Shown here: in pieces, positions 19,771-35,924 of the stretch
How positions within the stretch are numbered: the stretch's first letter is position 1
Layout: each line of letters opens with the position of its first letter
NCBI RefSeq assembly: GCF_015840335.1
Contig: NZ_CP060395.1
Location: 1,609,277 to 1,649,276 of the forward strand
Length of the DNA stretch: 40,000 nucleotides
Direction of reading: 5' to 3'
Source of the DNA: Synechococcus sp. CBW1108
Lineage (GTDB): Bacteria > Cyanobacteriota > Cyanobacteriia > PCC-6307 > Cyanobiaceae
Made by a program: the position numbers and the translations under genes
The notes under the pieces: model-generated
Seen by the model: only the letters and a program-made list of their open reading frames with translations
What the model was told of the DNA's origin: nothing
The model's database searches: none

Positions 19771-20941
19771 TGTGCACCTCCGTAAGACGGTACAACGTCA
19801 ACTTGCTTCCGTTGCCCAATCCATGGCTGATTGGGATTCGCATCAAAGCAATGTCGATATTCAAAAACGCCTTGCCTCAGCGATTCGCCCCTTTAGTCAT
19901 ACAACACGTTGGACGGGATACTGCGGTGGTGTTGATGGTACGGGCGACTTTCCTGCGATTTCCTATGCCGACTCCTTCGTGTACGTGAGCGTGGCGGCAG
20001 GAGCTCTTTACCGGTCGGACCCCGTGAGTGGCCTTAAGGAACTCGAGCAGGAGGCAAGTCCGTTGGTGGAATTCACCTGGCTGACATCTAGCCACCAGCA
20101 GCGCCAGAGTGCGCTGTTGGCTTCATTTGAGCAACTGGTAGGGACATCGGTGGACGATGTACTTCAGCATTCTGACTATGCTGATCTTGGCTCTTCAAGT
20201 GTGGAGAAGCGCAGGATTAACTCACTGATCATCCCTCCAGCCTATGACGCTGGAAATCTGGGCATACAATTACGAACCACGGCAGAACTGGCCGTAGCTC
20301 TTAAATTGATCGAATCGGCGCCCAAGGGGACGCTAGTTCTTACCGATGGCACGATGTCGCTCCCGCTTGCGGGCCGCTCGAAGCAGAGCCTGTTCTTTGA
20401 GCATCTGCGCCGCTATTGCTGCGTTCGAGCACGGGAGCGGGGAGTGGTCTTCGCTTCTCTCTCGAAGTCGAGTGGCTTACCCACTGGAATCAGGATTGAG
20501 GATGCAGCTAAGGCCGCTCTAGGAATCAATGAACCGGAACACTGGTTCGTAAGAGTACCCACGAAACAGCTCGACGACTGGAGTCTGTTCCCAGATGATG
20601 GTCCGCAGGTTCCTCCGACGGGAGCGGTGAGCTACTTGGTTCGCTTGCACCGCAAAAGCCCGGTCATGCGGCTCGACCTTGATCAGCAGTACTGGCAATC
20701 CGCAATTGCCACAGGCGACGTCGAGAAGAATGAGCAAAAGCTGTTTGCTTCACTCGACTACGTGAGCCACGATCAGCGTTCCTATGGGTATCCTTATCCC
20801 ATCAAGGCAGCTCATGATCGTGCTTCTCTCACAGAACACGAACGTACAGTGTTGCGTCAACAACTTGTTGAGTCTGCCGTTCAAGCAGGCATATCTCGAG
20901 ATGCCTTTCGTGACCCTTCTCAAATGACCGGGCATCGATAG
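19760..20941 (+). CDS. nurA: NurA-domain nuclease
   Basis: GGVDGTGDF, LVLTDGTMSL and SYGYPYPIKAAHDRASLT match the conserved NurA motifs. ATG at 19760 overlaps the upstream gene by 11 nt (the ORF-track start at 19736 is TTG). Immediately upstream of herA. Confidence 0.7.
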   Translation: MRFDVHLRKTVQRQLASVAQSMADWDSHQSNVDIQKRLASAIRPFSHTTRWTGYCGGVDGTGDFPAISYADSFVYVSVAAGALYRSDPVSGLKELEQEASPLVEFTWLTSSHQQRQSALLASFEQLVGTSVDDVLQHSDYADLGSSSVEKRRINSLIIPPAYDAGNLGIQLRTTAELAVALKLIESAPKGTLVLTDGTMSLPLAGRSKQSLFFEHLRRYCCVRARERGVVFASLSKSSGLPTGIRIEDAAKAALGINEPEHWFVRVPTKQLDDWSLFPDDGPQVPPTGAVSYLVRLHRKSPVMRLDLDQQYWQSAIATGDVEKNEQKLFASLDYVSHDQRSYGYPYPIKAAHDRASLTEHERTVLRQQLVESAVQAGISRDAFRDPSQMTGHR

Positions 20942-20949
20942 GAGGCAGG

Positions 20950-22761
20950 ATGGCATCACTCGAGCAACTTGTAGAGATTCTAGGCCAACGGTTTGGCGTG
21001 TTAGCTGAAAGCAGCACAACGCAGCTCACCGTCATCGCTCAGAACTCTGATGTAGCGATTGGAGACCTGTTCCTATTGCCGTGTCGACGAGGACCAGATC
21101 GCTTCTATGTGTTCCGGGCAACCGAGTATGCCAATGTCCTGAATCGAACGATCGACATCGGCGACGTCGCGCGCAACAAGTTGACGATGCCTGACTCCTA
21201 TTTTTCTGAAAACCTTGCTGAAGAGCAGCTGGTGGAGTTACGAGGTTTGATTCTGGGCTATGCGCAGCACGATCAGGATCAAGACGTCTGGCTGTTCTAC
21301 CGGCCTAGACGCTTGCCACAGCATCTTACGGATGTGTTCCGAGTTGATCCAAGCCGTGATGCATGTGGCCACGTCGTGGGTGAACTCCTCAGGTCTCAAC
21401 TGGGCTCAGCTGGCCTCCATATCGGGAATCTGCTGGCTGGAGAGGACGCTCTGACATCAGTACCGGTTTATCTACCGATCGCTGCATTGGCACATCACCT
21501 GGCTGTGTTTGGCAGGACAGGCTGTGGTAAGAGCAACTTGATCATGACCCTGCTCCACGAAGTGCTTCGCCACAACTTGGAGGTTAACCGGGGGCAACTG
21601 ATCGAAAGACGAGCATCCATCTTTGCGATTGACCCACACGATGAATTTCGGACATGGCACTCCAATTCGGGAGGGGCGGATGGCATCAGAGGACTAGTCA
21701 CTGCTCTTTCTGAGGGCGAAACAGAAGAGCTAGCAGCCCCTTTCTACTACCTGACCTCTCGCGATGTCCTTGATGGTCCGCTGGAGGCCCGGGTAACCCT
21801 GTCGAGAGCTGATATCACGCCCGATGATGTCGTGAGCATCATGGACTTCTCCGAACAGCAGGTGGCGTTCGCAAGACAGTTGTTTGGTGAGCATGGGGAA
21901 CGGTGGATCGGACGGCTCTTTGCAGGGGACGTGGATGACCCGAATGGTGACGAGGGGGGAGCACAGTTCCTTCCGGGAAGCATTGCAGCGGTGGAACGGC
22001 GCATGGGTTTCCTCGCCCATGGCGCGACCCGCTTGGTGAGCAGGTTTGATCCAGACGCAGGTCTGGCTTATCAGTCCAAGTTGCCTGACATCCTGTCCTC
22101 ACTCGAGCGAGGGCGACTGCTGATCGTGGACACGACTCTCCTAGGCGAACTCGAGCAGTTTTTGCTAAACACGATTGTCGCCCGTACACTGTTTGCTATG
22201 CGAAGAGCACTCCGTCTGGCCGATACCCCAGAGCGCCTGCGGCACGAGCTGTTTGGAGTCCTCGGAGTAGATGACGAAAACGGACGCATCGGACAGCGGA
22301 CCCTCGCTGACTCTCTATGGGAGCGCATTGAAAATGATGACGTTCCGTACCTTGATGGTACAAGGGTTCGCTCACCCGATGAACTGCCAGTCGTTCATAT
22401 TCTTGTTGAAGAAGCGCCGAGTGTTCTAAACCCTGTACGAATGAAGTTCGGAAGCGTCTTCCGCGACATCAGCCGTCAAGGTCGAAAGTTTGGCATTGGC
22501 CTGGGGTTAGTTAGCCAACAGGTTTCGGAGATCGATCGGGGGATTTTGACGCAGGTAAATACGCAGCTTACAATGGCACTAGGTAATGCAGATGAACGAC
22601 GTGAGGCTGTGCGAGTTGCCTCTACAGATATCGGCGGCTTTGCCCAGGAGCTACAAGTCCTTAGCCGCGGACAATTGGTGATGTCTACCAGTCTAAGAGA
22701 TGTAGCTTTGCCTGTACAAGTTGCAAGTTATGAGGGGACGAGAAGTAGACATGGCTGGTGA
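20950..22761 (+). CDS. herA: HerA/FtsK-class ATPase (HerA helicase-like)
   Basis: Walker A FGRTGCGKSN, Walker B-like VVHILVEEAPS, RKFGIGLGLVSQQVSEID...VNTQLTMAL is the typical HerA C-terminal region. GGAGG Shine-Dalgarno sequence at 20941-20945. Confidence 0.8.
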   Translation: MASLEQLVEILGQRFGVLAESSTTQLTVIAQNSDVAIGDLFLLPCRRGPDRFYVFRATEYANVLNRTIDIGDVARNKLTMPDSYFSENLAEEQLVELRGLILGYAQHDQDQDVWLFYRPRRLPQHLTDVFRVDPSRDACGHVVGELLRSQLGSAGLHIGNLLAGEDALTSVPVYLPIAALAHHLAVFGRTGCGKSNLIMTLLHEVLRHNLEVNRGQLIERRASIFAIDPHDEFRTWHSNSGGADGIRGLVTALSEGETEELAAPFYYLTSRDVLDGPLEARVTLSRADITPDDVVSIMDFSEQQVAFARQLFGEHGERWIGRLFAGDVDDPNGDEGGAQFLPGSIAAVERRMGFLAHGATRLVSRFDPDAGLAYQSKLPDILSSLERGRLLIVDTTLLGELEQFLLNTIVARTLFAMRRALRLADTPERLRHELFGVLGVDDENGRIGQRTLADSLWERIENDDVPYLDGTRVRSPDELPVVHILVEEAPSVLNPVRMKFGSVFRDISRQGRKFGIGLGLVSQQVSEIDRGILTQVNTQLTMALGNADERREAVRVASTDIGGFAQELQVLSRGQLVMSTSLRDVALPVQVASYEGTRSRHGW

Positions 22762-24541
22762 ACGTAAAGGACTAACCTACGAAGCTATTGTCAGGATCGC
22801 GCTTGACAAACTTGCCACACAGACTAAGGATTCACGCAATATCTTCTGGAATGCAAAGCCTGCTTCAATGACCATTGAGCCAGACTTTACTATTGGCCAA
22901 GAGGCTAATTCACCAGATGCAGTAATACTGGTAACGCATAGTGGCTCTGCCAAAGATTCTGAGAAGAAGTTCTGGAGGAATCTTGGAGAGCTCGTCGAGG
23001 CTAAGACAAGGCTTCTAAAGTCCCCTCTCGTCTACTCAATTGCTTTTGACTCAGTCATCAAGGAAGATCTCAAGCAGATACAGGCCTGTGCATTTGATGG
23101 CCAACTTGTAGTTGGTGATCACGCCTATGGATCAGCACTTCTAAGTTTTGTCTCGCAGTTCCACAATAAACTACCAAAGGACAAGGACGACAAGGTTGAT
23201 GCAATCAAGAATATAATATCAGATCGCGACTATTCTGATATTCTGAATGCGATCCTTCGACTGTCTGAACATATAGCAGACCTGCTAATTGGCCAAAATG
23301 ACGACCTCCAAGGAGCATGGGAGCTCCATAAGAGTCACGTTGCGGGCCGGATGCCAATGGCGCATGATTCATTAGTTAGACGTGGCATGCTCAAAGCAGC
23401 TCTTCTTGGAGAAATACCGGACCATTCAAAGCCAATGTCGAAAACGGCAACACTCATTGCGCAACAACTTCGACTGGCGCGTAAGGAAGATATCGCTACT
23501 CGCTCGATTGTAGGTTCGCGATTAGCTGACAAAGACCTGGTCTGGTTATCAAGGTCCAATCTAAATGCGATTGATGTCGCTAGGCTTGTTGAAAAGTTTG
23601 GGACTCAAGGATTCCAACGTCAGCTCATAAAGCTAAGATCTGTAGCACTACTTCCTGAGTTCTTGAGATATACACAGGCAAACCGATCAAAGCTCATTAC
23701 TCCAGAAGGGATGAAAGCTGCTTTGCAACAGCTTCATAAAGATCCATCTGACGCACTCTCGATCCAAGACGGAATTCCGTCCCCATCCACTGTCTGGATG
23801 TATGACTTTATTGCAGCAGTTGTAAAGGCTCGTTCAAAACGAGCGCAAGACTTCGGCTACTCCACGTTCGCGAAGTCACCGGATCCCAAAGGAAGAATGA
23901 TAGGCAATATGGATGTCGGCACATGGTGCAGTTGCTTCATGAACCAGTATTTTAACCGGAGTCCTAATTTTAGTGCCCCACCTGCTGCAATTGAACATTG
24001 CGCATCCATTCTTGCAGGTGCCCTTGCATCTGGTGATCCAGCCGAACTCAGGGGACCTATCGATGAGATCAGAGAACAATATATCAATAAAGAACTTGAG
24101 GTGGGCCTGCTTACTCATCGCGGATTCGATCCAGTTGGCTCGCTTATTATTGAAGCTCTTGAAGAGGCAGGTCTATCCCACCAATTAGAAACATGTCCAG
24201 GTATTTTTGCAGAACGTGCAAGATGCGATGGCCGCATCAGCAATCAACGCTCAGGTTCGACAACCTTGCTACGAACTAAGAATACATTGGTCAACTGGCA
24301 GTCTGCACATGACTCTCATACCAATGACAAGCGAAAGGAACTATGCGGTCGCATATCAGCAATTCGTTATTCCTGGAACCCCGTAGAAAGCAGGTGCACA
24401 AAAAAGGAAGGAATAGATAAGTTTATCTTAGTTGTTGACGGAACATGGTGTGAGGCCGACTTGCAAGCACTTGCAGCTTCTGGTTGGGACGAGATCTACT
24501 ATCCAGACGAAGTGGCAATCCTTATTAAGGCAATCGTCTGA
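22751..24541 (+). CDS. hypothetical protein (596 aa), no family recognised; possible nuclease-like terminal domains
   Basis: ATG at 22751 overlaps herA by 11 nt. N-terminus EPDFTIG...DAVILVTHSGSAKDSEKKFWRNLGEL and C-terminus TLVNWQSAHDSHTNDKRKELCGRI share a similar motif, which might indicate a restriction-endonuclease-like fold. This is very tentative. Confidence 0.6.
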   Translation: MAGERKGLTYEAIVRIALDKLATQTKDSRNIFWNAKPASMTIEPDFTIGQEANSPDAVILVTHSGSAKDSEKKFWRNLGELVEAKTRLLKSPLVYSIAFDSVIKEDLKQIQACAFDGQLVVGDHAYGSALLSFVSQFHNKLPKDKDDKVDAIKNIISDRDYSDILNAILRLSEHIADLLIGQNDDLQGAWELHKSHVAGRMPMAHDSLVRRGMLKAALLGEIPDHSKPMSKTATLIAQQLRLARKEDIATRSIVGSRLADKDLVWLSRSNLNAIDVARLVEKFGTQGFQRQLIKLRSVALLPEFLRYTQANRSKLITPEGMKAALQQLHKDPSDALSIQDGIPSPSTVWMYDFIAAVVKARSKRAQDFGYSTFAKSPDPKGRMIGNMDVGTWCSCFMNQYFNRSPNFSAPPAAIEHCASILAGALASGDPAELRGPIDEIREQYINKELEVGLLTHRGFDPVGSLIIEALEEAGLSHQLETCPGIFAERARCDGRISNQRSGSTTLLRTKNTLVNWQSAHDSHTNDKRKELCGRISAIRYSWNPVESRCTKKEGIDKFILVVDGTWCEADLQALAASGWDEIYYPDEVAILIKAIV

Positions 24542-24543
24542 CC

Positions 24544-26859
24544 ATGATTACTCTTGCTGATCTCATTCGAGCTGTCTCGAGCTTCCGCCCTCCACCGGAC
24601 TCACAACAGTTTCAAGCTGTTAATAGCTCCGCAAATACTGGTCTTTTCATCGTTGCGGGTCCAGGAACAGGCAAAACAGCAAGTATCACACTTCGAATTC
24701 TTAAGTTGGCGCTTGTCGATGGAATTCCACCTCGCGGTATTCTTGCAACGACCTTTACGAAGAAAGCAGCCGAAGAGTTACGCTCTAGAATCCTGGGTTG
24801 GGGGTTTAGGATCATCGATGCGTTAAGGGAAGATAAAACTCTCTCACTAGATCAAGCTGCATTTCTGGGCTCTATCGATATCAATCAGATTCGAACTGGA
24901 ACAGTCGATAGCCTTTGCGAGCAACTCCTGCGTGAGTTTCGAGCACCAGGTACACAACCACCAGTACTTGTCGATGACTTCGTCAGCAAGACCCTCATGC
25001 TACGGGAAGGAATGTTTGGTGATGGCCGGTATCAGAACAATGATCTAGACGCATTCCTACTTGATCTCCACTCAGAGACGGGCAGTAGGTACAATTTCCA
25101 CGCCGGCACTAAGTCGGCAATCGTCAAACAGATTTGGGAGAGGAGATTCCAGGATCAAGTTGATTGGCACAGCTTCTCAACCCTAGGCCCAGCCGTCGAG
25201 CAGCTAGCCAGAACAAAGCTGGAGGAAGCACATAGTGCCTATGAGTCAGCGTTGTCATCAGCGGGCTTGGTTGACTTCTCCCTGCTGGAGAATGAAGTAC
25301 TCCAGCGGTTGAAGGCTGGCCAACTCACCGAGTTCACGGATCAGCTGCAAGTTGTGCTGGTCGATGAGTACCAGGACACCAATCTCCTTCAGGAAGAACT
25401 TTACTTTGAGCTAGCCAATGCCTGTGGCGGGGCTCTCACTGTTGTTGGAGATGATGACCAGAGCCTCTATCGATTTCGTGGAGCAACTGTTGACCTCTTC
25501 AGAGACTTCCCCACTCGCTACAATCAACGGTTTGAAGAAGAGCCAGAGCAGGTCTTTCTTGCCAACAACTATAGATCGAGTAAAAGTATTATCTCTTTCG
25601 TTAATGGATACGCAACCCTGGATGCGGGCTACCAGGCCGTGCGTGTTTCTGGGAAGCCACCCTTGGCACATGGCCCCAAGGCTCCAGACGGGATCCCTGT
25701 GCTTGGCATGTTTCGCGACACACTTGACCTCCTGGCTACAGATCTTGCTGCCTTCATCCATGACGTGTTTCGTGGCACTGGCAGCGCAGTCCCTGGCGGC
25801 CGCGTCAAATCTGACCCTACTGGGGGTAATGTTGGAGATTGTGCATTGCTCTGTAGCAGCCCTGCTGAGTACTCCGCATCCGACAGGCCACGGCTTCCCT
25901 TGCTTCTCCGCCAAGAGCTAGCTTCGCTGAATCCTCCAATCGATGTTTTTAATCCGCGTGGAGAAGAGATCGCAACAGTCGAAGTCGTTGAGCGCTTTGG
26001 AGGCCTGCTCTTAGAAGCTCTTGATCCTGGTGGGGTGGTCCAAGGCCAGACGAATGGAATCTCCCTAAATGCCCAGCAGGTTTTTACCGTTTGGAGACAA
26101 CGAGCTATAAATTACACCCAGGATCCCTCAGCACCTATGGGTCTTTTGGCCTATGCGCAAGGGTGGGCGAATCGAGACCCTGCAAGGAATGGCTATCGAT
26201 GGCCTGGTAGTACTTCAGTAATTGAACTAGTTTACGGACTCGTTCACTACTTTCCTGAACTTCATGATGACCCTGAGGGCCAGGTCTACCTCGAGGTTTT
26301 CACCCGTCAACTTGGTGCCTGTGCACAAGTTGGCAAGTTTGATGGTCGGGTTGTTGCTGACCCCTCAAATGTAGATCTTTCAGATGCATCTATTAAGGAA
26401 CTGCTACGAGACTTTCTCTCTCCCATTGCCGATGGGGTTGTGGGTGTCAATGAAGACCTGATGGAGTCATTTCCTAGAAATCGCCTTTCTGTTCTCTCAA
26501 TTCACCAGTCAAAAGGTCTTGAGTTTCCGTTAACCATCGTTGACGTTGGCTCTGATTTCAAAGACTTGCGATCTCCAAAATTCAAGCGTCACCCAGACGC
26601 AGGCTCACCAGCTCACAGGATGGAGAATCTGCTTCGCCAGAACTCCGCCCTTGGCGTACCAACACGGTCAGAGGTTAATCGAGCATTTGATGACCTCTAT
26701 CGCCAGTTCTTCGTCGCCTTCTCTCGACCCCAGGATGTTCTCCTGCTTGTGGGGGTGACACCCACTCAACCTGGAGGCCGTGTTCCGAATGTTGCGACAG
26801 GTTGGGATAGAGACGGAGTCTGCCGATGGGCAAGGAATCTTCCATACCAGCTGATTTAA
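24544..26859 (+). CDS. UvrD/Rep/PcrA-type superfamily 1 helicase
   Basis: Walker A AGPGTGKT, ATTFTKKAA, VLVDEYQDTN, VGDDDQSLYRFRGA, NYRSS, SIHQSKGLEF and FFVAFSRP form the full SF1A motif set. Starts 3 nt after the previous stop. Confidence 0.85.
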   Translation: MITLADLIRAVSSFRPPPDSQQFQAVNSSANTGLFIVAGPGTGKTASITLRILKLALVDGIPPRGILATTFTKKAAEELRSRILGWGFRIIDALREDKTLSLDQAAFLGSIDINQIRTGTVDSLCEQLLREFRAPGTQPPVLVDDFVSKTLMLREGMFGDGRYQNNDLDAFLLDLHSETGSRYNFHAGTKSAIVKQIWERRFQDQVDWHSFSTLGPAVEQLARTKLEEAHSAYESALSSAGLVDFSLLENEVLQRLKAGQLTEFTDQLQVVLVDEYQDTNLLQEELYFELANACGGALTVVGDDDQSLYRFRGATVDLFRDFPTRYNQRFEEEPEQVFLANNYRSSKSIISFVNGYATLDAGYQAVRVSGKPPLAHGPKAPDGIPVLGMFRDTLDLLATDLAAFIHDVFRGTGSAVPGGRVKSDPTGGNVGDCALLCSSPAEYSASDRPRLPLLLRQELASLNPPIDVFNPRGEEIATVEVVERFGGLLLEALDPGGVVQGQTNGISLNAQQVFTVWRQRAINYTQDPSAPMGLLAYAQGWANRDPARNGYRWPGSTSVIELVYGLVHYFPELHDDPEGQVYLEVFTRQLGACAQVGKFDGRVVADPSNVDLSDASIKELLRDFLSPIADGVVGVNEDLMESFPRNRLSVLSIHQSKGLEFPLTIVDVGSDFKDLRSPKFKRHPDAGSPAHRMENLLRQNSALGVPTRSEVNRAFDDLYRQFFVAFSRPQDVLLLVGVTPTQPGGRVPNVATGWDRDGVCRWARNLPYQLI

Positions 26860-26865
26860 CCTGCC

Positions 26866-28050
26866 ATGCCCCTATCCATCCGTCCCAAGGTCTATTCACT
26901 ACCGTCTTACAGCCTCACAGGGGATCTGCTGGGCTACCTTCGCTGTGGCCTTCAGTACCGTTACAGCAGACTGGGTAAACTGCCTCCATCCCGCCCAGTA
27001 CAGCAGTGGTTTGGTGAGTATATCCATGGGGTGCTTGAGGAAGCCTTTCGCCGGTTCAAGGAATCTATTGATAATGGATCTCCATCCCTACCTCCGTGGT
27101 CTCAAGATGAACTTCAAGACATTCAGGCACTGATCAAGAAGCGACTAGAAGCAAGAGGGCTGTATGCCTGGAATGGTGAGGTTGAGCGGCTTGGCTCACG
27201 CCGCGGAGAATCTGCAATTCAGGAGCTCGGGCCCCACCTATTCCCTCTCATCCATAGAGCAGAGGTGCGCCTGACTGGGGCCAGACTTCTTCCCGAGATA
27301 GACCCTCAATTCCAATTCAGAACGGCTGACCGCTACGAGGTGGTTGGTGTTGTCGATGTGGTCACTCATATTGAGATTGATGATCCCGCATTGGCGGGGA
27401 ATCCGATCGTTAGCTACCTAAATCAAGCTCTTGGGGAGGGGCTTCCTGACCAGTTTGAAATCATTGTTGATTACAAGGGTATGCGACGTCCGCCTGTGAG
27501 CTCAGCTGGTTCTGGCTCCTTATGGACGCAGTATCAGTGGCAGATCCAGACGTATGGTGAGCTCCGTCGTGTCCAGCCAGATGCCCTTCATGTTGCTGGA
27601 GGCGTCTTGCTCTATATCAATGAACTTTCGCCTACTAGAGGTGACCTGGAGCGTCTCAAGGCCGAAATCGCCAGCGGTACTACTGACGTGCCACCTCCGC
27701 CAGGTTCAGCGGATGAGTTTGCCATGAGGAATTGGAAGACCCGCGATAAAAGCCTACCTAAACTTTCCTTCGGCTATCGTCTCTTACGGGCACTTCGCGT
27801 CGTGCCGATTTCGCCACAATCAATCAAAGTAGCACTTGAAGCCTTTGACGGAGTGGTTCAGGAGATCGAGACTTGCCGAGGGAGAGAAGCCAATGGAGGC
27901 AGCGTGATCCAATCTTGGACAAGGAACTCAAACGAGGAGAGCACGTGTGTGGTGTGTGACTCCCGAACGTATTGCCCCAATTATCAGTCCCAATACTCCT
28001 CCAAGCATGGTGGCACTGAACCTCGACTACCAGGCGTAAAGGATACGTAA
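26866..28050 (+). CDS. PD-(D/E)xK nuclease, Cas4/RecB/AddB-like, with a 4-Cys (Fe-S type) arrangement
   Basis: VGVVDVV, IVDYKG (the D-x-K position) and QIQTYGEL (QxxxY). One N-terminal Cys (LRCGLQY) plus C-terminal CVVCDSRTYC, as in Cas4/AddB nuclease domains. Confidence 0.7.
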   Translation: MPLSIRPKVYSLPSYSLTGDLLGYLRCGLQYRYSRLGKLPPSRPVQQWFGEYIHGVLEEAFRRFKESIDNGSPSLPPWSQDELQDIQALIKKRLEARGLYAWNGEVERLGSRRGESAIQELGPHLFPLIHRAEVRLTGARLLPEIDPQFQFRTADRYEVVGVVDVVTHIEIDDPALAGNPIVSYLNQALGEGLPDQFEIIVDYKGMRRPPVSSAGSGSLWTQYQWQIQTYGELRRVQPDALHVAGGVLLYINELSPTRGDLERLKAEIASGTTDVPPPPGSADEFAMRNWKTRDKSLPKLSFGYRLLRALRVVPISPQSIKVALEAFDGVVQEIETCRGREANGGSVIQSWTRNSNEESTCVVCDSRTYCPNYQSQYSSKHGGTEPRLPGVKDT

Positions 28051-28067
28051 TCGATTGCACTTTACGC
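28034..28067. terminator. hairpin spanning both stop codons of the convergent genes
   Basis: gcgtaaag (28034-28041) pairs with ctttacgc (28060-28067) around an 18-nt loop. Only 11 nt separate the two stops. Confidence 0.3.
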
Positions 28068-28973
28068 TCCTACCAGTCCAGTATGAAAGTACATGCTTGA
28101 ACTAGAAAGTGGCATGCTTGTGCGACTTGCCGTGGCCAGATTGCACAGGGCCAGGTGCAGCCGCTCCAAGGGAGAAGGCTCGACGAGGGCCGAATTCTTG
28201 GCTCCCCAGAGCTTTCCATCAGCAGCAAGCTTGACGTAGGAGCTGGAATCGACGGACTGCACCCCCCGTTTATAAAGCTGTTCGACAATGTCCGGTTGTC
28301 CGATGCCGAACACGTGTAGTGGACGGTCTTCTATAGCCTCTCGCACCGCATCCACGATGGCGAACAGGTGCTCCCGATCAAGCATGCGAGGAACCAGGCC
28401 TCCGATCGCGTATCCGTCGAACTCATGTGGGGCAAGCGCTTTAGCGCAGGTCCGGTAACTGTCAACATCCCATCCCTGCACGCAGGCGTAAAGCACGAGA
28501 TCACGTCGACGACGGTTCTCGAGAGCCCAGAGTGCATTGGCGATGGTTAGAGCAAGCCTTCGCTTGGCTTCCCGATTGGCCATAGAGGGGGGGATCGGAA
28601 AGTCAAGAGTGAAGGCGATATCCGCGTGAGCCTCTTGGAACTCAAGCACCTCCTTGGGATGGAGTGTCTCCGTGCCCTCCTCAAACACCCGCTCGAGGAT
28701 GCCCAGTCCTCCTCGCATCCGCACTTTGGCGTCTTTGAAAAGAGACGCAAACCCACCCGAGTCGATCATTAGGGGCAGATTAGGCCGCTCCTTCATCTGT
28801 CTCGCGTAGTGAAGGCTTACCATCACTGCCGGTGCCAGACGACGAAGATAGGGCCGAACCAAGTCATCGAGCGGGTACTTGTCCCCGAATGTGGTCACTG
28901 GTACGTAGGCCGGAAACGGAACGCAACCGTGAGCTGTTTGGATCTGGGCAGGTGCTGAGGATTCGGTTCCCAT
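28062..28973 (-). CDS. dpdA: stand-alone TGT-family transglycosylase, DpdA-like (303 aa), lacking the C-terminal Zn motif
   Basis: MIDSGGFASLF (the DSGGFQ catalytic-Asp motif), FDGYAIGGLVP (GYAIGGL), PLHVFGIGQP...GVQSVDSSSY (the nucleophile-Asp position). No CxCxxC...H. The start lies 2 nt after the stop of the upstream helicase. Confidence 0.8.
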   Translation of the reverse strand: MGTESSAPAQIQTAHGCVPFPAYVPVTTFGDKYPLDDLVRPYLRRLAPAVMVSLHYARQMKERPNLPLMIDSGGFASLFKDAKVRMRGGLGILERVFEEGTETLHPKEVLEFQEAHADIAFTLDFPIPPSMANREAKRRLALTIANALWALENRRRRDLVLYACVQGWDVDSYRTCAKALAPHEFDGYAIGGLVPRMLDREHLFAIVDAVREAIEDRPLHVFGIGQPDIVEQLYKRGVQSVDSSSYVKLAADGKLWGAKNSALVEPSPLERLHLALCNLATASRTSMPLSSSSMYFHTGLVGA

Positions 28974-28975
28974 GT

Positions 28976-31378
28976 TCAGCGCCCCTCAAACCAAAGTTGG
29001 AAAACATCAAGTCCCTTTGTGGTGCCCGGAGTGCTTTGGAGCAGCTCGCGGAGCTCCAAGAGATCAGGTTCCTTTCTGTGGAGCCGCACCGCAAGCAGGT
29101 GCTTGCAGTGGTTCCCTTTGGCGAAGTCGGCACAGTCGCATTGAATTGGTCTTTCGGGATGAGCGACGATCCGGTGTGGTTCAAGACCTCCACTCACCTC
29201 GTACTGATACCTACGCCGAAGTGTGACCTTGAGCTCAAGCGATCTGCGGAACCGATAGGGATCAACGATTGAAGGCCAGTCAGCACATGACGACTCTACG
29301 TATTCTCCTGACCTCATTTCACGGAATGCGAAGGCCGAACGTGTCTTGATCATTTCAGTTGCCGCTTCAATCCATTTCTTGGCTCGCTCGAGGGATACCC
29401 CACGGACCATCGCCACTTCCTCGGGCTCGGCGATGCAGAGGTCATCAATACTGCTGATGCCCACCTCGTGGAGCCTCCGTGCCAGTGTGCCACCAACCCC
29501 GGGCAGAAAGGTGAGCGTGACGGCTTCCTCATCGATACCGTGAGCCACCATGCTTGTCAAGGCGCGCACACGCTCCTGCAGCGTTGCTTCCTCCTCAAGC
29601 GGGATGCGCTGCTTCTCCTCGTCTTCGCCATCCTTCGGTGGAGTGATAACCGCAGTGCCTGCCGTCAGAATGCGTTCCAGGTTTTCGGTCAGGCGTCGAA
29701 TCTCGAAGGTGTAGCAGCCATACTCCTTGGCGACTGACTCAGCATCTCCGCTTCGTGTCCATGCCCGGGCCACGAGTGCCGTCTTCACGCATGACAGCAA
29801 ACGACGCCCCTTGCATCGGAGATGGGCCGTCGTACCTGCTTTGTCTCTCGAAAGAAGCGCTGAAGGTTCTGCAGATAGTGCGCTTGCCAACATCTCGAGG
29901 TCTTCGAAACCGGCCGGGATCAACGGCTCGCAGTCAGGTGTGTCTGTACAGAGCAGAAGGAGATCAAACAGAGTCAACTGATCCCGATCTTCTCCCAACA
30001 AGGCTTCCGATAGCCGCAGCGCGGTGTCTGGGCTCAGCATCTGGCGAACGGCAATGCGTCCGAGCCGTGTTGCCCGCAGCGTGAGCTTGTCTCCCCCCTC
30101 GTTTGGGGTCTCGATGAGCATCTGCGAGTTCAGCATCTTGTCAATCACAAGGCTGATCTTTGGAAGAGCCCTTTGATGATGAGCCAGGCTCCCAGTGAAG
30201 ACCCGATCTAGCTGGATGCGGGTCCGTGCCATCCCACTGGCCACTTCGGAGAGAATCTGCTCAGCGACGGCAGCCTCATGTCGCAGCCCTGACATGATCC
30301 GCTCAAACATTCCAGCCAGGTAGCGGCCTGTTTTCTGGCCCCAGCTCGGAGCAAGGAGCACCACCTCCCCTTGCTCGTCGAATCCTCGACGACCCGCCCG
30401 ACCTGCACGCTGCCAAACAGTGTTCACGTCCAACGGGACAAAGTCGTGTCCGTCAAACCCCTGGAGGTCGTACAGCACAACCTGCCTTGCTGGAAGGTTG
30501 AGACCCATTTCCAGAGTGCTTGTAGCGACGAGCACCTGCAGGCATTTTGCCCGGAAGCGTCCCTCGACCTCATGCCTCACGTCGGTTTGCAGACCAGCAT
30601 GGTGGTGTCTTGCATTCAGCCCCCCTTGACGCAGGTGTTCCGAAAGCTGTTCAGCTCGCCGGCGGCTCTGCACGAACACAAGGCTCTGTCCACCAGCCGC
30701 TACGCATTGACGTACCTGCTCCTCGAGGAGCCCCGGCTTGTCGGTGGCCTTCTGAAAGCTGACAACCTTCCATTCCAGGGGCAATGGTCGCCAGTCATTC
30801 CGATAGCTGACTCCCCCAAGCCAGTCAGCCAGCTCATCAGCATTGCCCAAGGTGGCAGACAGACCCACGATGCGCGCATGGGGGTTCAATCGACGGATAC
30901 GAGACAGCGCGCCCTCAAGCCGTGCACCACGGCTCGGATCCCCGAGCAGGTGGAACTCATCGGCCACGATCAGGTCAACTGCGGGGATCCAGGCCCAATG
31001 ACTCCTCCAGTGGCGCGTGCAAGCGTCCAGCCGTTCCGGGGTCATGATCAGCACGCTGGCGCGCTCAAAGGGGACCGGATACCGCTGCCTCCCTCCGTAC
31101 TCCCCTGTAAACACACCGATCTCATGCCCGGAGAAGCTCCGCTTCCATCGTTCGACAAGCTCATTGGCCAAGGCTCGAAGGGGGGTGAGGTAGATGGCAC
31201 GTCCACCCCGCTCGATGGTTTCGGCGATCGCCCTCTCGGCGAGCCAGGTTTTGCCGGTCCCAGTAGGAAGCTGAAGCACGCAGCTGAATCCGCTGCCGAG
31301 CAGATCCCTGTCTACGACTTCCTGCTGGGCCGGATTCAGGCGGGCCGCTGGTTCCGAGATCATCGCAGTCCTTCGCAT
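28976..31378 (-). CDS. Hel308/Ski2-like SF2 helicase with C-terminal HhH and SWIM zinc finger
   Basis: LQLPTGTGKT (motif I), VADEFH (motif II), LSATLGN, VATSTLEMGLNLP and QRAGRAGRRG (motif VI). HhH: LPGVGGTLARRLHEVGISSIDDL. SWIM: CDCADFAKGNHCKH. Start set at the ATG MRRTAMISEP (cat at 31376-31378), because the longer ORF to 31606 overlaps the divergent HTH gene. Confidence 0.8.
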   Translation of the reverse strand: MRRTAMISEPAARLNPAQQEVVDRDLLGSGFSCVLQLPTGTGKTWLAERAIAETIERGGRAIYLTPLRALANELVERWKRSFSGHEIGVFTGEYGGRQRYPVPFERASVLIMTPERLDACTRHWRSHWAWIPAVDLIVADEFHLLGDPSRGARLEGALSRIRRLNPHARIVGLSATLGNADELADWLGGVSYRNDWRPLPLEWKVVSFQKATDKPGLLEEQVRQCVAAGGQSLVFVQSRRRAEQLSEHLRQGGLNARHHHAGLQTDVRHEVEGRFRAKCLQVLVATSTLEMGLNLPARQVVLYDLQGFDGHDFVPLDVNTVWQRAGRAGRRGFDEQGEVVLLAPSWGQKTGRYLAGMFERIMSGLRHEAAVAEQILSEVASGMARTRIQLDRVFTGSLAHHQRALPKISLVIDKMLNSQMLIETPNEGGDKLTLRATRLGRIAVRQMLSPDTALRLSEALLGEDRDQLTLFDLLLLCTDTPDCEPLIPAGFEDLEMLASALSAEPSALLSRDKAGTTAHLRCKGRRLLSCVKTALVARAWTRSGDAESVAKEYGCYTFEIRRLTENLERILTAGTAVITPPKDGEDEEKQRIPLEEEATLQERVRALTSMVAHGIDEEAVTLTFLPGVGGTLARRLHEVGISSIDDLCIAEPEEVAMVRGVSLERAKKWIEAATEMIKTRSAFAFREMRSGEYVESSCADWPSIVDPYRFRRSLELKVTLRRRYQYEVSGGLEPHRIVAHPERPIQCDCADFAKGNHCKHLLAVRLHRKEPDLLELRELLQSTPGTTKGLDVFQLWFEGR

Positions 31379-31414
31379 CGAACGCCTCTCAATCCGACTG
31401 ACCACTAGCCTAGT

Positions 31415-32050
31415 ATGCGTGAGCCGGCTGGACGCCAAGGAAGTGCCAATAAACATGGCGTGGAACGCGCCGAGAGCGGTTTGCTCTCCCGGAACACCCG
31501 CTTCCTGCTGTGGAAGCAGGAGATTCCACGAGATCAGTGGGGCACCTGGCTGGAGGCCCGGCTCAGTTGGTCGGCCACTCGAATCAAGCAGCTCGTGCGG
31601 GGTCAACTTGACGACAGCCGACTTGGGTACGAGGAAGTCAGCGAACTCTCAGGCCTGTTCAGGATGAACGCTGACGAACAGGAGCTCCGCTACCGGGATT
31701 TGGTCACGGAACGCTGCGACATCCTTCGTGAAAATCTGACGTTTCTGTTCGACAGCCTGGAGCGAGGTGGCAAGAAGCTGCTGGCCGAAGCTCTCAGTAT
31801 TGATCCCACCACTGTGTCCCGTTGGCTCAACGGGTCTTTTGCGCCGAACAATCTCACGCTTGCCTCGCTAAGCAATTACTTCGGGCTCCCCCCTGGTACG
31901 GATCTAACTAAGGATCCCATTTTTCTTTCTGTTGATCCAGTCGCCGAAGCAGAGCAGCGCCAGTGGGTGGCCAACCATCTGAAGGAACTCTCAGCAGAGG
32001 AGTTTCGTTTGCTCTATCCCGCCTTCCGCCGGCTCCTTGAAGACCGATGA
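31415..32050 (+). CDS. XRE-type helix-turn-helix regulator (two HTH-like segments)
   Basis: LLAEALSIDPTTVSRWLNGSFAPN is a classic XRE HTH. N-terminal NTRFLLWKQEIPRDQWGTWLEARLSWSATRIKQLVRG looks like a second one. The stop overlaps the next gene's ATG (ATGA at 32047). The start is ATG 31415 or GTG 31457. Confidence 0.65.
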   Translation: MREPAGRQGSANKHGVERAESGLLSRNTRFLLWKQEIPRDQWGTWLEARLSWSATRIKQLVRGQLDDSRLGYEEVSELSGLFRMNADEQELRYRDLVTERCDILRENLTFLFDSLERGGKKLLAEALSIDPTTVSRWLNGSFAPNNLTLASLSNYFGLPPGTDLTKDPIFLSVDPVAEAEQRQWVANHLKELSAEEFRLLYPAFRRLLEDR

Positions 32051-34386
32051 AGCGTTTCAGTGCTGGAACCACAGGCGAAGCTCCAGCGGCGACTTTGGCC
32101 TCCGCGAAGAGGTTACGAGTCTCATGCAAATGGAAATCAGTGATTGATGTTTGTACGAAGGGGAATCCGCTTCGCCCTGTTCAGGCCAAAGCCCTTCTTG
32201 AGTACCGGATGCTGGATAGCCGGCGTCACATGGTCGTCTGTGCTCCGACGAACAGTGGGAAGTCATTGATCGGTAATCTCGCGTTGTTTGAGGCACTCCT
32301 GGCGGGCAAGCGTGCCGTACTCCTCGAGCCTCTGCGCTCTCTTGCCCAAGAGAAAGCCGATGAACTCGCTGAGCTTCTTGTCCCATTGAGCACTTCCCTT
32401 GGGAAAGTCAACCTATGTCTGACAACAGGGGATTACAGGCTTGAAAACTCCACCTTCCAAGATACCGCCCCTGATCGTGGCGAATTGGTCATCGCCACTC
32501 CTGAACGGTTCGAGGCCATTCTTCGTAATCCAGCCAACCATCCTTGGGTGGACTCCATTGGCTGTGTCGTTGTCGACGAGGCGCACCTAATCGGGTCCCC
32601 TCGGCGTGGCCCAACGCTTGAGTTATTAATTGCGACTCTTCTGAGCTCGACGTTACCACCCCGTCTCGTTCTGTTGACGGCTACAGCTGGCCAACCTGAA
32701 CGCTTAAGTGAGTGGCTCTCGCCATGTGATCTTGTTCAAGAACATTGTCGAACACCTCCGCTCAGCACTGAAGTGTGGAGCCTGGACGAGGCTGACGATG
32801 TAGATACGGTTCTGGCACAGTCGATTTCTAAGACGCTAAGCGATCCCTGTGCTTCTGTGCTCATTTTCGTCTTTAAGCGAGCATCAGCGAACGCCTTGGC
32901 TGTGTTTTTGCAGAAATCCCTCGGTATTCCTGCCGGTGCATATCACTCTGGGATGACGGCAGAGCAACGTCGGGAGGTACGCCATCGTTTTTCAGATGGC
33001 CGACTCCGCTGCGTTGTGACAACGTCTGCGTTAGCGATGGGCGTGAATCTCCCCGCAACCCACGTCTACGTTCGAGACACCACATTCTTTGGTCATGGCG
33101 CCCTTGGCGCGGACGAAGTCCTTCAGATGGTTGGGCGTGCTGGCCGCGGTGATCGTGCTGGGCATGCGGTAGTGCTGCTTCGTGCCAGTGATACCTGGAC
33201 AGGCCTGGAGCTTGCGAACGCTCTGCGAACACAAGATCTTCCACGCTTACGGTCTGCCTTTGACCCTGTTTTCACCAAGCGCTCTGTGCCAGGTCACGAG
33301 GACGACTCTGGTGTAGCAGCACAAGCTATTGCCTCTTGCCTGAGCCGATGTGGAGAGAAGGGTCTCAGTTTGGCTGATCTCAACATCATCCTTGGCAACT
33401 CCTTGGCAGGACCTGCCCTCACCCGTCGAATAGAGCCTGCCCTTCGCTGGTTAGAAGATCCTGCTCGTGTCCTGGCGTACTGCGGTGAGGACCAGAATCA
33501 CCACCTGACAGTGCTCGGTCTTCGTGGCGTTCGCTCAGTGCTACCCCTGGGATACGTTGCAGGCCTGGGCCAGCTTGTACGCGACTTGATGTGGTTGGAT
33601 CCAACTGATCGAATGCTGTCCCAGTGGTCAGCCCTCGATCATCTGCTGGTGATGACTTTGCTCAGTGACAGAACACCTTGCCTGCGCCGCTTCAGTTCCA
33701 AGCTGGCCGAGCAGATTGACGGATGGCATGAGAGCCGGATCCACCTTGATAAGTCACTCTTGTTCCGTGAGTGGATTTGTGGAGCTGAAGGCTCATCAAG
33801 ACCTGATGAGCTCTTTGGATCCCTCGGCCTCTGTTCGAACCACCGAGAAAACTTGGCTTCTTCACACCATAAGAACGCATACCTCGCGATGCTTGGTGCG
33901 ATTCTGTTGGACGAAAGGTCTCGCGGTGTCCCAGTTATTGATCTAGAGCGAAGATGGGGGATTGCGGGGCTTGAGGGCATGCAGGAGTCTTGGAGAGACA
34001 CAGCGTTATGGCTTCTTGCGGGTCAGGCGCAGATTTTTGAGCTCCGAACCTTCTACCATCACCTCGTTGAGCATTGCGAAGCCGACCGCGAGCGTATTCA
34101 GCGAGTGAAGAAACAGCTGCGAATCATTCGCCATCAAACCTTCGATTTGATGGAACGGATTAAGTATTGCTCTGCACTCGGGCCTCTGATGCGTGGCGTG
34201 CGAGGCATGCTCAGCTCAAGCACTTCCCAATCAGTGGGGCCTGGCACCATCAAGAGGCTTGAAGAAGCTGGCATCCTCACCTTCGCTGACGTCGCTGCTC
34301 TCGATGTCGAAGCGATGGTGGATCTTGGAGTTCAACGCCGCTACGCAAAACAAATCCGTGCCTATGTACGACGACGTCTCAGATAA
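32047..34386 (+). CDS. Hel308/Ski2-like SF2 helicase (second copy, no SWIM)
   Basis: CAPTNSGKS (motif I), VVDEAH (motif II), LTATAG, TTSALAMGVNLP and QMVGRAGRG (motif VI). C-terminal HhH-like VGPGTIKRLEEAGILTFADV. Confidence 0.8.
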   Translation: MKRFSAGTTGEAPAATLASAKRLRVSCKWKSVIDVCTKGNPLRPVQAKALLEYRMLDSRRHMVVCAPTNSGKSLIGNLALFEALLAGKRAVLLEPLRSLAQEKADELAELLVPLSTSLGKVNLCLTTGDYRLENSTFQDTAPDRGELVIATPERFEAILRNPANHPWVDSIGCVVVDEAHLIGSPRRGPTLELLIATLLSSTLPPRLVLLTATAGQPERLSEWLSPCDLVQEHCRTPPLSTEVWSLDEADDVDTVLAQSISKTLSDPCASVLIFVFKRASANALAVFLQKSLGIPAGAYHSGMTAEQRREVRHRFSDGRLRCVVTTSALAMGVNLPATHVYVRDTTFFGHGALGADEVLQMVGRAGRGDRAGHAVVLLRASDTWTGLELANALRTQDLPRLRSAFDPVFTKRSVPGHEDDSGVAAQAIASCLSRCGEKGLSLADLNIILGNSLAGPALTRRIEPALRWLEDPARVLAYCGEDQNHHLTVLGLRGVRSVLPLGYVAGLGQLVRDLMWLDPTDRMLSQWSALDHLLVMTLLSDRTPCLRRFSSKLAEQIDGWHESRIHLDKSLLFREWICGAEGSSRPDELFGSLGLCSNHRENLASSHHKNAYLAMLGAILLDERSRGVPVIDLERRWGIAGLEGMQESWRDTALWLLAGQAQIFELRTFYHHLVEHCEADRERIQRVKKQLRIIRHQTFDLMERIKYCSALGPLMRGVRGMLSSSTSQSVGPGTIKRLEEAGILTFADVAALDVEAMVDLGVQRRYAKQIRAYVRRRLR

Positions 34387-34441
34387 TCATTGTCTCGCTG
34401 ACAGTTCGGAATACACCCTTCTCTCAGATACAGAAGTTAGG

Positions 34442-35122
34442 TCAGGTTCCGCTGCTGGTCAGATCGGGGCGACCAGCTTCCCGTAGGGCCTCATCGCGGA
34501 TACGGCAGCTGTCGCAGACACCACATGGATGGTCGCCACCCGCATAGCAGCTCCAGGTGCGTTCGGTCGGCACCCCAAGCCGCAATGCCTCTTGCACGAT
34601 TCGGGCCTTGTTCCATTGCACCAATGGAGCCCATAGCAGGGGAGCTCTTCCTTCCCTCCCTGCCTTGCTCGCCAGTTGGGCAAGCTCCTGGTATGCCTTC
34701 AAGTAGTCCGGACGACAGTCCGGATACCCCGAATAGTCGACTGCGTTGAAGCCCAGGATGATCCGCTCAGCACCTCGGGCCTCAGCAAGGCTGAGAGCAA
34801 GCGCAATGAACACCGTATTGCGGCCAGGGACGTAGGTACTGGGGATACCTCCGCCGAGTACCCCTTCAGCAGGCAGTGACTGCTTCAAATCGGTCAGGGA
34901 GGAGCCACCCCATGCGGAGAGGTCCACCGAGATGGTGACATGTTCAACGAGCTCAAGCGCGTTGGCCAACTCGGCAGCGGCTTTGAGCTCACGCCGATGT
35001 CGCTGCCCGTAGTCGAAGGAGAGCCCGATCACACTCAGCCCTTCCTCGCAGGCCAGTGCAGCCGCAGTTGCGGAGTCAAGCCCACCGGAGAACAGGGCAA
35101 TGGCTTTGGGCTTGTCAAGCAT
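34442..35122 (-). CDS. queC: 7-cyano-7-deazaguanine (preQ0) synthase QueC
   Basis: [15 protein letters not shown] (PP-loop SGGxDS), [13 protein letters not shown], and the C-terminal Zn cysteines WSCY...CGVCDSC. ATG at cat 35120-35122 (the ORF-track start at 35146 is GTG). Confidence 0.9.
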
Positions 35123-35249
35123 TCTTCCGCGCTTGCCTGTGACCACGCCCCATCATCGCGTGGCGACCCGCTCGATTGCACACAATTCCAGGCCTTTTGG
35201 TGCTTGGTTGCCCGCAAAAGTTCAAAGTGAACGTTCTGTGTCTATGCGT

Positions 35250-35924
35250 TCACAAGATGCCCAGCCATTTATGGGCTTGCAGGCTCAGGCGCCAGGCAGG
35301 GTGGCTTTTAACGAAGTCGATCGAGAGCCGCAAACCTTCAGAGCTTTCCCATCCAGGCTGGAGGAACAACTTGGCATCGCCATCACACCTTGAGTGAATC
35401 GTGGATTCAGCCATCAGGAGCGCAAACTCCAAGTCTGCGGGTTCATGCACAATGACCTTTAGCTCGTGACACGCATCAAGCAGTTCCTGCCGCGGGGGCG
35501 CATGGCGCTTCGGGGAAAGCGTGATCCAATCAGGTGATCCAGAAATTGGGTCAACGCCACTTGTTTCGAGATGGATCGGGAGTGAAGTGGCACTCCGAAG
35601 CTCGCTTGCTAGCGGAGCCAGGTCGTGGTGCAATGGTTCTCCGCCGGTGATCACAATAAACGCGGCTCCATTCGCTTGTGCGTGGTGTGCTTCTCTTGCT
35701 GTCTCAATAAGAGTTTGATGGGGGTGTAGGTCTTTCGGCCATGAGTGCTTGGTATCACACCAAGTGCACCCGACTGTGCATCCCCCAAGTCGGATGAAGA
35801 AAGCACTTCGACCTGCATGAGCTCCCTCCCCCTGCAGAGAATGGAATGTCTCAACGATCGGGAGTGACCCGGGGTTTATGCCTTCATTCTTGGCATGGCC
35901 ATGCTTTGTAGACATAACGGTCAT
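35250..35924 (-). CDS. queE: 7-carboxy-7-deazaguanine synthase QueE (radical SAM)
   Basis: ETFHSLQGEGAHAGRSAFFIRLGGCTVGCTWCDT is the QueE radical-SAM cluster motif (Cx14CxxC type), with ITGGEP. Alternative ATG at 35915. Confidence 0.85.
   Translation of the reverse strand: MTVMSTKHGHAKNEGINPGSLPIVETFHSLQGEGAHAGRSAFFIRLGGCTVGCTWCDTKHSWPKDLHPHQTLIETAREAHHAQANGAAFIVITGGEPLHHDLAPLASELRSATSLPIHLETSGVDPISGSPDWITLSPKRHAPPRQELLDACHELKVIVHEPADLEFALLMAESTIHSRCDGDAKLFLQPGWESSEGLRLSIDFVKSHPAWRLSLQAHKWLGIL

Follow-up and report, generated by a model that had tools for sequence, protein, structure and literature searches.

Why should an enzyme that exchanges guanine bases travel with a helicase? The question is raised by four genes of Synechococcus sp. 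CBW1108 (NZ_CP060395.1, a single contig of 3.23 Mb, 98.5% complete), which lie in a stretch of 40,000 nt that was analysed as a whole and is referred to below as the window. On the minus strand a helicase of 800 residues with a Hel308 fold and a carboxyl-terminal SWIM finger (HelSWIM, 28976-31378) is encoded upstream of a short, zinc-less transglycosylase of the TGT family (sTGT, 303 residues, 28062-28973), the helicase stop codon and the transglycosylase ATG being separated by 2 nt. Divergently, on the plus strand, a protein with a tandem XRE-type helix-turn-helix (HTH, 31415-32050) precedes a second Hel308/Ski2-like helicase that has no SWIM finger (Hel2, 779 residues, 32047-34386), whose start overlaps the HTH stop codon (ATGA). 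A previous reading of this DNA, made from its letters alone (the sequence-only reading), had located the four open reading frames correctly and had described a Hel308-like helicase ending 2 nt ahead of a DpdA-like gene.

The four genes form a conserved unit of what is apparently an undescribed variant of the bacterial 7-deazaguanine DNA-marking systems. The stretch would be the core of a horizontally acquired, DpdB-less relative of the Dpd modification-restriction system, a relative that possesses two transglycosylases. The reading favoured here, held with slightly better than even confidence, is that HelSWIM feeds unwound DNA to sTGT, which would write 7-deazaguanine in it, in the manner in which DpdB serves DpdA.

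Conservation of the helicase-transglycosylase pair

Through sTGT, 28 related loci were recovered from seven or more phyla (Proteobacteria, Acidobacteriota, Myxococcota, Planctomycetota, Verrucomicrobiota, Bacteroidota and Cyanobacteria) and the window proteins were mapped onto them. Of the 24 loci that include DNA upstream of sTGT, 23 have HelSWIM as the immediately preceding gene on the same strand, and in 13 loci the two genes overlap by ATGA. In 20/28 loci the HTH gene diverges from HelSWIM; Hel2 comes after it, and HTH and Hel2 overlap by ATGA or GTGA in 10/14 loci. Such an arrangement, with the helicase-TGT order kept across phyla and overlaps of this kind recurring at both junctions, is far beyond chance.

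The two proteins are also encountered as a single polypeptide. A search of 1.84 billion representative proteins gave seven clusters in which sTGT is fused to a helicase, one in the order helicase, helix-hairpin-helix (HhH), SWIM and TGT (P0257) and six, of 943-1025 residues, in the order TGT, helicase, HhH and SWIM. The helicase part of all fusions aligns over ~750 residues with HelSWIM at 31-45% identity, SWIM included, and far better than with Hel2. These fusions came to light only among the representatives; the top 120 homologues of HelSWIM include none. Strict adjacency, ATGA coupling and fusions in both orders support the prediction that HelSWIM is functionally tied to the adjacent TGT-family enzyme.

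Pair and fusions occur as well outside the island context. The pair stands alone on a Pseudanabaena plasmid (L028) and beside a Mu-like transposase (L023), while stand-alone fusions are found amid three DNA methyltransferases, amid plasmid-like genes with DdrB and RecD2, and beside MoxR/VWA genes; the fused forms have no neighbouring nucleases. In an Akkermansiaceae bin (L021, 2392-10462) an XRE-M78 (IrrE-like) regulator comes after the pair, and next FolE2, QueD, QueE and QueC, which make a full preQ0 pathway. sTGT is the only transglycosylase found there, with no canonical DpdA detected in the assembly. The locus also codes for a 602-residue SNF2 helicase ending in a SWIM finger, and the carboxyl-terminal part of its FolE2 resembles DpdC. 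SNF2 proteins beside stand-alone pairs were considered as candidates for DpdE and rejected.

One of the fusions (P0357; L055, 4253-21127) is carried by a 131-kb contig together with a C5 DNA methylase, an N6 methylase, a D12-class methylase and IS605 OrfB. The arrangement suggests a mobile element that has gathered several DNA-modifying genes.

The short transglycosylase

sTGT matches the Pfam TGT family (PF01702) with 91 bits and TIGR00449 with 90.4 bits (cut-off 47.6). It consists of the barrel only, with nothing beyond it, and belongs to a family of more than 4,800 homologues that are ~65% identical across phyla. Comparison with 20 homologues shows that the catalytic motifs DSGGF (D71, invariant) and DSSSY (D242, nearly invariant) are present, together with LDFP, GGLVP and the His of PLHVFG, and that the base-pocket motifs are invariant or nearly so. 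With both catalytic aspartates and the base pocket retained, the enzyme looks active. The CxCxxC...H zinc cluster is found neither in sTGT nor in the 20 homologues. The identification of this gene as DpdA by the sequence-only reading had to be abandoned: the protein scores 56.9 bits against the model NF041059 of DpdA (Pfam PF23859), where the cut-off is 200, it has no zinc site, and the real DpdA is a fusion protein encoded at 17713-19770. To judge from its sequence, sTGT is a zinc-less TGT clade separate from DpdA. A phage collection contained only relatives of ~24% identity, and within that collection sTGT therefore lies outside the phage DpdA groups described so far. Proteins of the TGT family that share 28-31% identity with sTGT are found on haloarchaeal plasmids (Halomicrobium, Haloarcula, Natronococcus, Haloferax and others).

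The best solved relatives of sTGT are arcTGT (1iq8, 58 bits) and bacterial TGT, while DpdA (7ui4) reaches only 30 bits. That these best relatives are tRNA enzymes, and that the Ski2 family comprises RNA helicases, would suit a substrate other than DNA. sTGT might then act on RNA or tRNA with a Ski2-like RNA helicase at its side, or on a protein-linked 7-deazaguanine like Cap10 of type IV CBASS, which is also a TGT barrel (~300-330 residues) that lost the zinc site and kept the base pocket and a conserved Asp/His catalytic pair, the catalytic Asp being kept in sTGT too (bioRxiv 10.1101/2025.04.06.647259). Cap10 has as partners a CD-NTase and the QueC-like Cap9, with the base linked to protein, and neither partner is encoded in the island, whose QueC is full-length and canonical. 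Moreover, sTGT matched only DpdA and, marginally, IetS in PADLOC, and no Cap10 chain in the PDB matched the family profile; these negatives are to be read with the inclusion of Cap10 in both resources being unconfirmed. The best fold match of HelSWIM is the DNA helicase Hel308, complete with HhH, and the conserved neighbours of the pair are all DNA enzymes, including a bona fide DNA transglycosylase. A non-DNA substrate, for which the gene context offers no support, is on these grounds considered unlikely.

A Hel308-like helicase with a SWIM finger

HelSWIM features DEAD, Helicase_C, HHH_5 and SWIM domains in Pfam. The HhH domain spans residues 621-673 (29360-29518, minus strand; HHH_5 40.7 bits) and the SWIM domain residues 717-767 (29078-29230, minus strand), with C747, C749, C758 and H760 as zinc ligands. 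The finger announced by the sequence-only reading is real but its spacing was misread as CxCx9CxH: the motif reads CDCxDx6CKH and hence CxCx8CxH. With 18.2 bits the window copy falls slightly short of the gathering score of PF04434 (19.6), and the fused homologue P0257 passes it with 23.5 bits. Among 112 HelSWIM homologues, the SWIM signature and the helicase motifs I, II, III and VI are at least 95% conserved.

The AlphaFold2 (AF2) model of HelSWIM has a predicted local distance difference test score (pLDDT) of 88.9. Foldseek aligns it to Hel308 of A. fulgidus (2p6r) over 723 columns with E = 6e-40, a TM score of 0.74 and 30% identity. The ~120 carboxyl-terminal residues fall outside this match and are modelled as three strands and a helix around the zinc ligands. 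The model thus has the five-domain plan of the archaeal Hel308/Hjm proteins (PDB 2p6r, 2zj8, 2va8), with two RecA domains, winged helix, ratchet and HhH, to which are added the SWIM domain of 120 residues, a setting in a defence island and the status of obligate partner of a TGT. Orthology is not reached, HelSWIM scoring 233-348 bits where the Hel308 equivalog cut-offs (NF040935 and related) are 887-1216. On the modelled fold the protein is Hel308-like, not a Hel308 orthologue. All helicase motifs being kept, in a Hel308 DNA-helicase fold with HhH, it looks active.

In PADLOC the best matches for the motor core are the Ski2/Hel308-like defence helicases HamB of Hachiman (148 bits) and BrxHI of BREX (142 bits). 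Both matches are partial, covering the core only, and the module has no HamA or BREX partner; Pfam and PADLOC scans of the neighbouring genes gave no match to HamA (DUF1837). The BREX-related TGT-HerA system is a different gene set.

Relation to the Dpd system

The Dpd system of Salmonella enterica serovar Montevideo (dpdA-K; Thiaville 2016; Yuan 2018; Gedara 2023, PMC10164549) has in common with the island the preQ0 synthesis genes, DpdA, the DpdC domain and several helicase or nuclease genes. In the island DpdC and DpdA are fused: the canonical DpdA, 9 kb from sTGT, is the carboxyl-terminal part of a protein encoded at 17713-19770 (NF041059 443.7 bits, cut-off 200) whose amino-terminal domain is DUF6884 (DpdC). 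Further differences are that orthologues of DpdB and of DpdD-K are missing, that there is a second TGT, zinc-less and tied to a Hel308-SWIM helicase, and that the nuclease side is composed of NurA-HerA and UvrD-PD-(D/E)XK. In full-text searches of the literature neither a TGT-Hel308 pairing nor a Dpd island that includes NurA-HerA turned up, and the module is apparently a variant of the Dpd-type 7-deazaguanine systems for which no published description was found.

The missing DpdB deserves attention. Its model (NF041060) has no match in the whole 3.23-Mb genome, in a search whose control genomes were likewise without a match, and PADLOC gave no DpdB among the ten island proteins scanned (best 25 families per protein). 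DpdB accompanies DpdA in 92% of dpdA genomes according to a 2016 review, a figure that leaves room for a DpdB-less variant. A variant of this kind would be missed by the GATOR-GC survey of dpd islands because the survey demanded dpdAB (PMC11888242).

In Salmonella, base insertion is ATPase-dependent: DpdA requires ATP hydrolysis by DpdB, for a reason that is still open, a helicase-like role being one proposed option (Gedara et al. 2023, PMC10164549). The same dependence is proposed for the island. The likeness between DpdB and HelSWIM would lie in the proposed role only, that of an ATP-driven helper making guanines accessible. DpdB has a ParB/DndB-like fold and HelSWIM is a superfamily 2 helicase, with no homology detected between them. 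While DpdA does not stably associate with DpdB (PMC10164549), sTGT and HelSWIM are in some cases one polypeptide.

A helicase acting as stand-in of DpdB for DpdA, as had been proposed from the sequence, is right in kind, DpdB being absent, and wrong in its partner, which is sTGT. The proposal can be recast with the DpdC-DpdA fusion as the enzyme served by HelSWIM and sTGT as an accessory or as a partner without catalysis, as QTRT2 is for QTRT1. The genome without DpdB and the ATPase need of Salmonella DpdA (PMC10164549) would both be accounted for, and the fusion is indeed found within ~12 kb of the pair in most complete loci; fusions of 682-722 residues are present in six of the 11 genomes checked, the window's own included. 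Yet linkage, coupling and fusions are all with sTGT and never with DpdA. The cyanobacterial DpdC-DpdA is encoded in an operon of its own with queC, queD and queE, and the pair exists in genomes in which no canonical DpdA was seen (5/11, of which four are metagenome bins where absence is unproven). The two catalytic aspartates of sTGT also argue that it is not a dead paralogue. This recast version is consequently held to be improbable.

Proposed mode of action

TGT enzymes act on an exposed, flipped guanine. Hel308 translocates 3'-5' on single-stranded DNA and has its HhH domain located where the strand emerges. In the favoured reading HelSWIM would be an active five-domain 3'-5' DNA helicase of Hel308 type that makes one working unit with sTGT. 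It would burn ATP to unwind DNA or translocate on it, passing exposed guanines to sTGT, which would swap them for preQ0 supplied by QueC, QueD and QueE, all encoded in the island. The SWIM domain, placed after the HhH, may position the transglycosylase on the emerging strand or replace the nucleic-acid grip provided by the zinc subdomain of other TGTs.

Several points weigh against this proposal. A canonical writer, the DpdC-DpdA fusion, is already present in the island, and a second one needs a reason. sTGT is nearer in sequence to the tRNA enzymes (arcTGT, bacterial TGT) than to DpdA, the Ski2/Hel308 folds include RNA helicases, and the activity of family members and their modification of DNA are predictions. 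The exception to the conserved pairing is L019, where sTGT is found without HelSWIM and has a family-A DNA polymerase and an AAA ATPase as neighbours. The DpdA-less genomes include metagenome bins of uncertain completeness. The position of Hel2 behind sTGT in cyanobacteria blurs the division into a writer arm and a restriction arm. Regarding expression, the operator motif is weak in the window, with a single good site, and a scan of 27900-34600 with the sigma-70 consensus, which may not be that of the host, gave no promoter.

The presence of a canonical writer is the starting point of the main rival, restriction by transglycosylation. The HelSWIM-sTGT pair would here be reader and effector: the helicase would scan incoming DNA and the transglycosylase attack unmodified guanines, leaving covalent adducts or abasic sites to be processed by NurA-HerA and UvrD-PD-(D/E)XK, while host sites modified by DpdC-DpdA would be inert. 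With DpdC-DpdA in place the second TGT may well differ in job, and two nuclease-motor pairs are conserved beside the module. Insertion of a 7-deaza base by TGT is effectively irreversible and guanine exchange is reversible, a difference that would give self/non-self discrimination. On the other side, pairs and fusions occur without canonical DpdA or nucleases, hence without a protective writer, and the L021 pair is linked to preQ0 genes with no other TGT found. The base pocket, too, is fully conserved, as for a base-inserting enzyme. Restriction by transglycosylation is therefore rated unlikely, although it is the competitor to be taken most seriously.

The two ideas can be combined. The pair might be a self-contained, ATP-driven base-exchange machine put to two uses. 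Alone or fused, on mobile elements such as plasmids, it would write 7-deazaguanine against restriction. In the island it would read DNA by attempted exchange, delivering adducted or abasic foreign DNA to NurA-HerA and UvrD-PD-(D/E)XK, with DpdC-DpdA as the protective writer. Such a dual employment is rated unlikely.

To our knowledge DpdA is the only characterised DNA 7-deazaguanine writer. A widespread family in which a TGT barrel is bound, and sometimes fused, to a true DNA helicase would offer a direct model for its ATP need. Should ATP indeed be spent on making guanines accessible in unwound DNA, in vitro assays could be run on one fused polypeptide. The finding adds to the known repertoire of Dpd-type defence; a survey that asks for dpdA and dpdB together will by design overlook such a variant. 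Culturable carriers (Picosynechococcus sp. PCC 73109, Nostoc sp. NIES-3756) make these questions testable.

The HTH protein and the divergent control region

The HTH protein has 211 residues when read from ATG 31415 and probably 196 when read from GTG 31460. It matches Pfam HTH_3 (PF01381) with 29.4 bits (gathering score 23) at residues 121-160. The amino-terminal module is detectable only by profile-profile comparison with hhalign, in which residues 22-96 match residues 100-165 with a probability of 96% and E = 3.6e-9. The two HTH-like segments and the ATGA coupling to the second helicase that the sequence-only reading had perceived are confirmed and, the two modules being homologous, the protein is on sequence grounds a tandem XRE duplication. 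The AF2 model (pLDDT 88) displays two four-helix modules and a carboxyl-terminal helical hairpin; residues 1-20 are disordered, with low pLDDT. Foldseek found no match to this model below E = 0.2, with weak ones to XRE repressors, C.BclI and POU domains.

Most HTH homologues have 185-197 residues and start 3-10 residues ahead of an N-x-R-x-L-L-W motif. This family length and the disordered residues 1-20 favour GTG 31460 or TTG 31481 as the start of the HTH gene. On the other arm, gene callers start the helicase of relatives with 91% identity at M6 (ATG 31363), which would give a HelSWIM of 795 residues. The gap of 36 nt described for the divergent genes holds with the two longest ATG starts, but with the favoured starts the non-coding gap is probably 81-117 nt; gaps of 70-116 nt occur elsewhere. 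The control region, compared across 19 loci, accordingly extends over 31364-31480, with a minimum of 31379-31414, its limits being set by the start codons chosen. It has no strand. The alignment with the 91%-identical relatives is too similar for footprinting or for fixing the HTH start.

GCATA/TATGC was counted 23 times, where 2.5 occurrences are expected, in the nine loci whose HTH proteins most resemble that of the window. The arrangement GCATA-N16-TATGC-N16-GCATA is found in L001, L002, L018 and L020 at a fixed distance from the HTH start, and L004 and L005 have the first two sites. The spacing is 21 bp in these six loci, a phase by which the sites come to face the same side of the helix. 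In other lineages the equivalent place is taken by inverted repeats of their own, of 8-10 nt with loops of 3-17 nt, and 9/20 regions score above 95% of the shuffled sequences. When k-mers were simply counted across the 20 intergenic regions together, their enrichment did not exceed that of shuffles, the signal being restricted to the GCATA pentamer in the closest loci.

The window itself has one good GCATA-type site, at 31411-31421, overlapping ATG 31415, with eight equal or better sites across the 40 kb, and a poorer inverted one at 31372-31382. Just before ATG 31415, at 31404-31414, lies the perfect palindrome ACTAGnCTAGT, with two CTAG tetranucleotides, which a relative sharing 91% protein identity retains apart from its centre base. 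A six-base inverted repeat, ACGCCA-N18-TGGCGT (31432-31461), is unchanged in the relatives of this identity. The operator had been predicted at 31379-31414. Between their divergent genes related loci do have conserved motifs in phase or long inverted repeats, but the positions in the window are mostly at 31411-31461, outside the predicted segment. The tandem-XRE protein would bind phased sites in this divergent promoter region and so set the expression of both arms.

The layout is reminiscent of restriction-modification systems with controller (C) proteins such as C.BclI, an XRE-type HTH protein like the one of the window (weak fold match, probability 0.87). In those systems a C-R operon is divergent from M, the regulator gene overlaps the next gene and repeated operators lie between the arms. 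However, a C protein is a single-HTH dimer of 80 residues and the window protein has ~190 residues with two tandem modules; the operators are phased at 21 bp and the downstream gene codes for a helicase, not for an endonuclease. The resemblance is taken as an analogy and not as membership.

A different role for the HTH protein would be that of a stoichiometric DNA-targeting subunit of Hel2, with transcriptional control no longer its main task. The ATGA/GTGA overlap in 10/14 loci is typical of complex partners, and two HTH modules with an extra helical hairpin would fit a targeting subunit. Against it, Hel2 has moved behind sTGT, into the same operon, in five loci of cyanobacterial type (L008, L011, L012, L014, L015) and the HTH gene stayed divergent; in L022 Hel2 is present without HTH, and lineage-specific repeats fall exactly in the promoter region. 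A subunit role is accordingly viewed as doubtful, and a regulator of both arms remains the preferred assignment.

Two observations concern individual loci. In L022 (3366-18945), which has no HTH gene, Hel2 is directly divergent from HelSWIM, and DpdC and a divergent DpdA-like gene are separate. The HTH gene of Pseudanabaena L008 (4907-5461) is apparently interrupted: its frame closes after 19 codons and tblastn aligns residues 24-210 further on.

The second helicase

Hel2 features DEAD, Helicase_C and a carboxyl-terminal HHH_5 domain, without SWIM, and all motor motifs are present. Its fold is assigned from sequence and from colinearity in hhalign, AF2 and Foldseek having been used for HelSWIM only. 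The closest solved structures are ASCC3, Slh1, Brr2 and Hel308; with 105-170 bits it stays, like HelSWIM, far below the Hel308 equivalog cut-offs of 887-1216. Hel2 and HelSWIM are 32% identical in a motor core of 357 residues and their carboxyl-terminal halves are colinear and distantly related (hhalign probability 78%, E = 1.8e-5). To call them twins, as had been done, is fair for the architecture but hides an old duplication.

Both window helicases were compared with the models of the Dpd helicases, as the sequence-only reading had recommended, and no orthologue emerged that would make this arm canonical. The DpdE model (NCBIfam) gives 28 bits against a cut-off of 500; the DpdF model gives 45.9 bits for Hel2 and 16.4 for HelSWIM against a cut-off of 550, and RecQ-like genes of the genome score higher; DpdJ matches neither helicase. 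These scores and the missing partners rule out Hel2 and HelSWIM as DpdE, DpdF, DpdJ, Hachiman or BREX orthologues. Hel2, translationally coupled to the HTH gene, would belong to the same module, more likely on a sensing or restriction side together with NurA-HerA and UvrD-PD-(D/E)XK.

Island, neighbouring genes and carriers

The G+C content is ~68% in the window flanks and 50-60% in the island, which extends from ~17.3 to 35.9 kb. HelSWIM is absent from the 24 same-genus and 16 same-class genomes searched, and the island is therefore regarded as acquired horizontally. To the left of the module, a plus-strand operon (17306-28050) codes for QueD, the DpdC-DpdA fusion, NurA, HerA, a 606-residue unknown protein, a UvrD-like helicase and a PD-(D/E)XK nuclease. 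In related loci NurA, HerA, the unknown protein, UvrD and the nuclease are mostly at 10 kb or less from the module. To its right, QueC and QueE are encoded on the minus strand at 34442-35924 (Pfam QueC 232.7 bits; Radical_SAM 37.1 bits). Two metagenome loci with 91%-identical proteins (L037, 1413-4192; L038, 510-3289) have lost queC and have a queE stub of 154 residues that overlaps the end of the Hel2 gene, which suggests that the island preQ0 genes are dispensable or decaying there.

The Phormidium locus L019 (476-5391) codes for a 623-residue family-A polymerase with a 3'-5' exonuclease domain and a CAAD protein, then for sTGT, with the AAA ATPase gene convergent; a DpdC-DpdA fusion is found on a different contig of this genome. 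Beyond the Pseudanabaena case, plasmids of cultured cyanobacteria carry related genes. sTGT is found on plasmids of Nostoc sp. NIES-3756, a culturable carrier, and Nostoc sp. MS1. A 38-kb plasmid of the cultured Picosynechococcus sp. PCC 73109 (NZ_CP014001.1; L059, 1074-15940) bears the system, with genes for the DpdA fusion, HTH, helicase, TGT, helicase, PD-(D/E)XK nuclease and UvrD-like helicase, adjoined by AbiEii and PIN/RHH toxin-antitoxin pairs.

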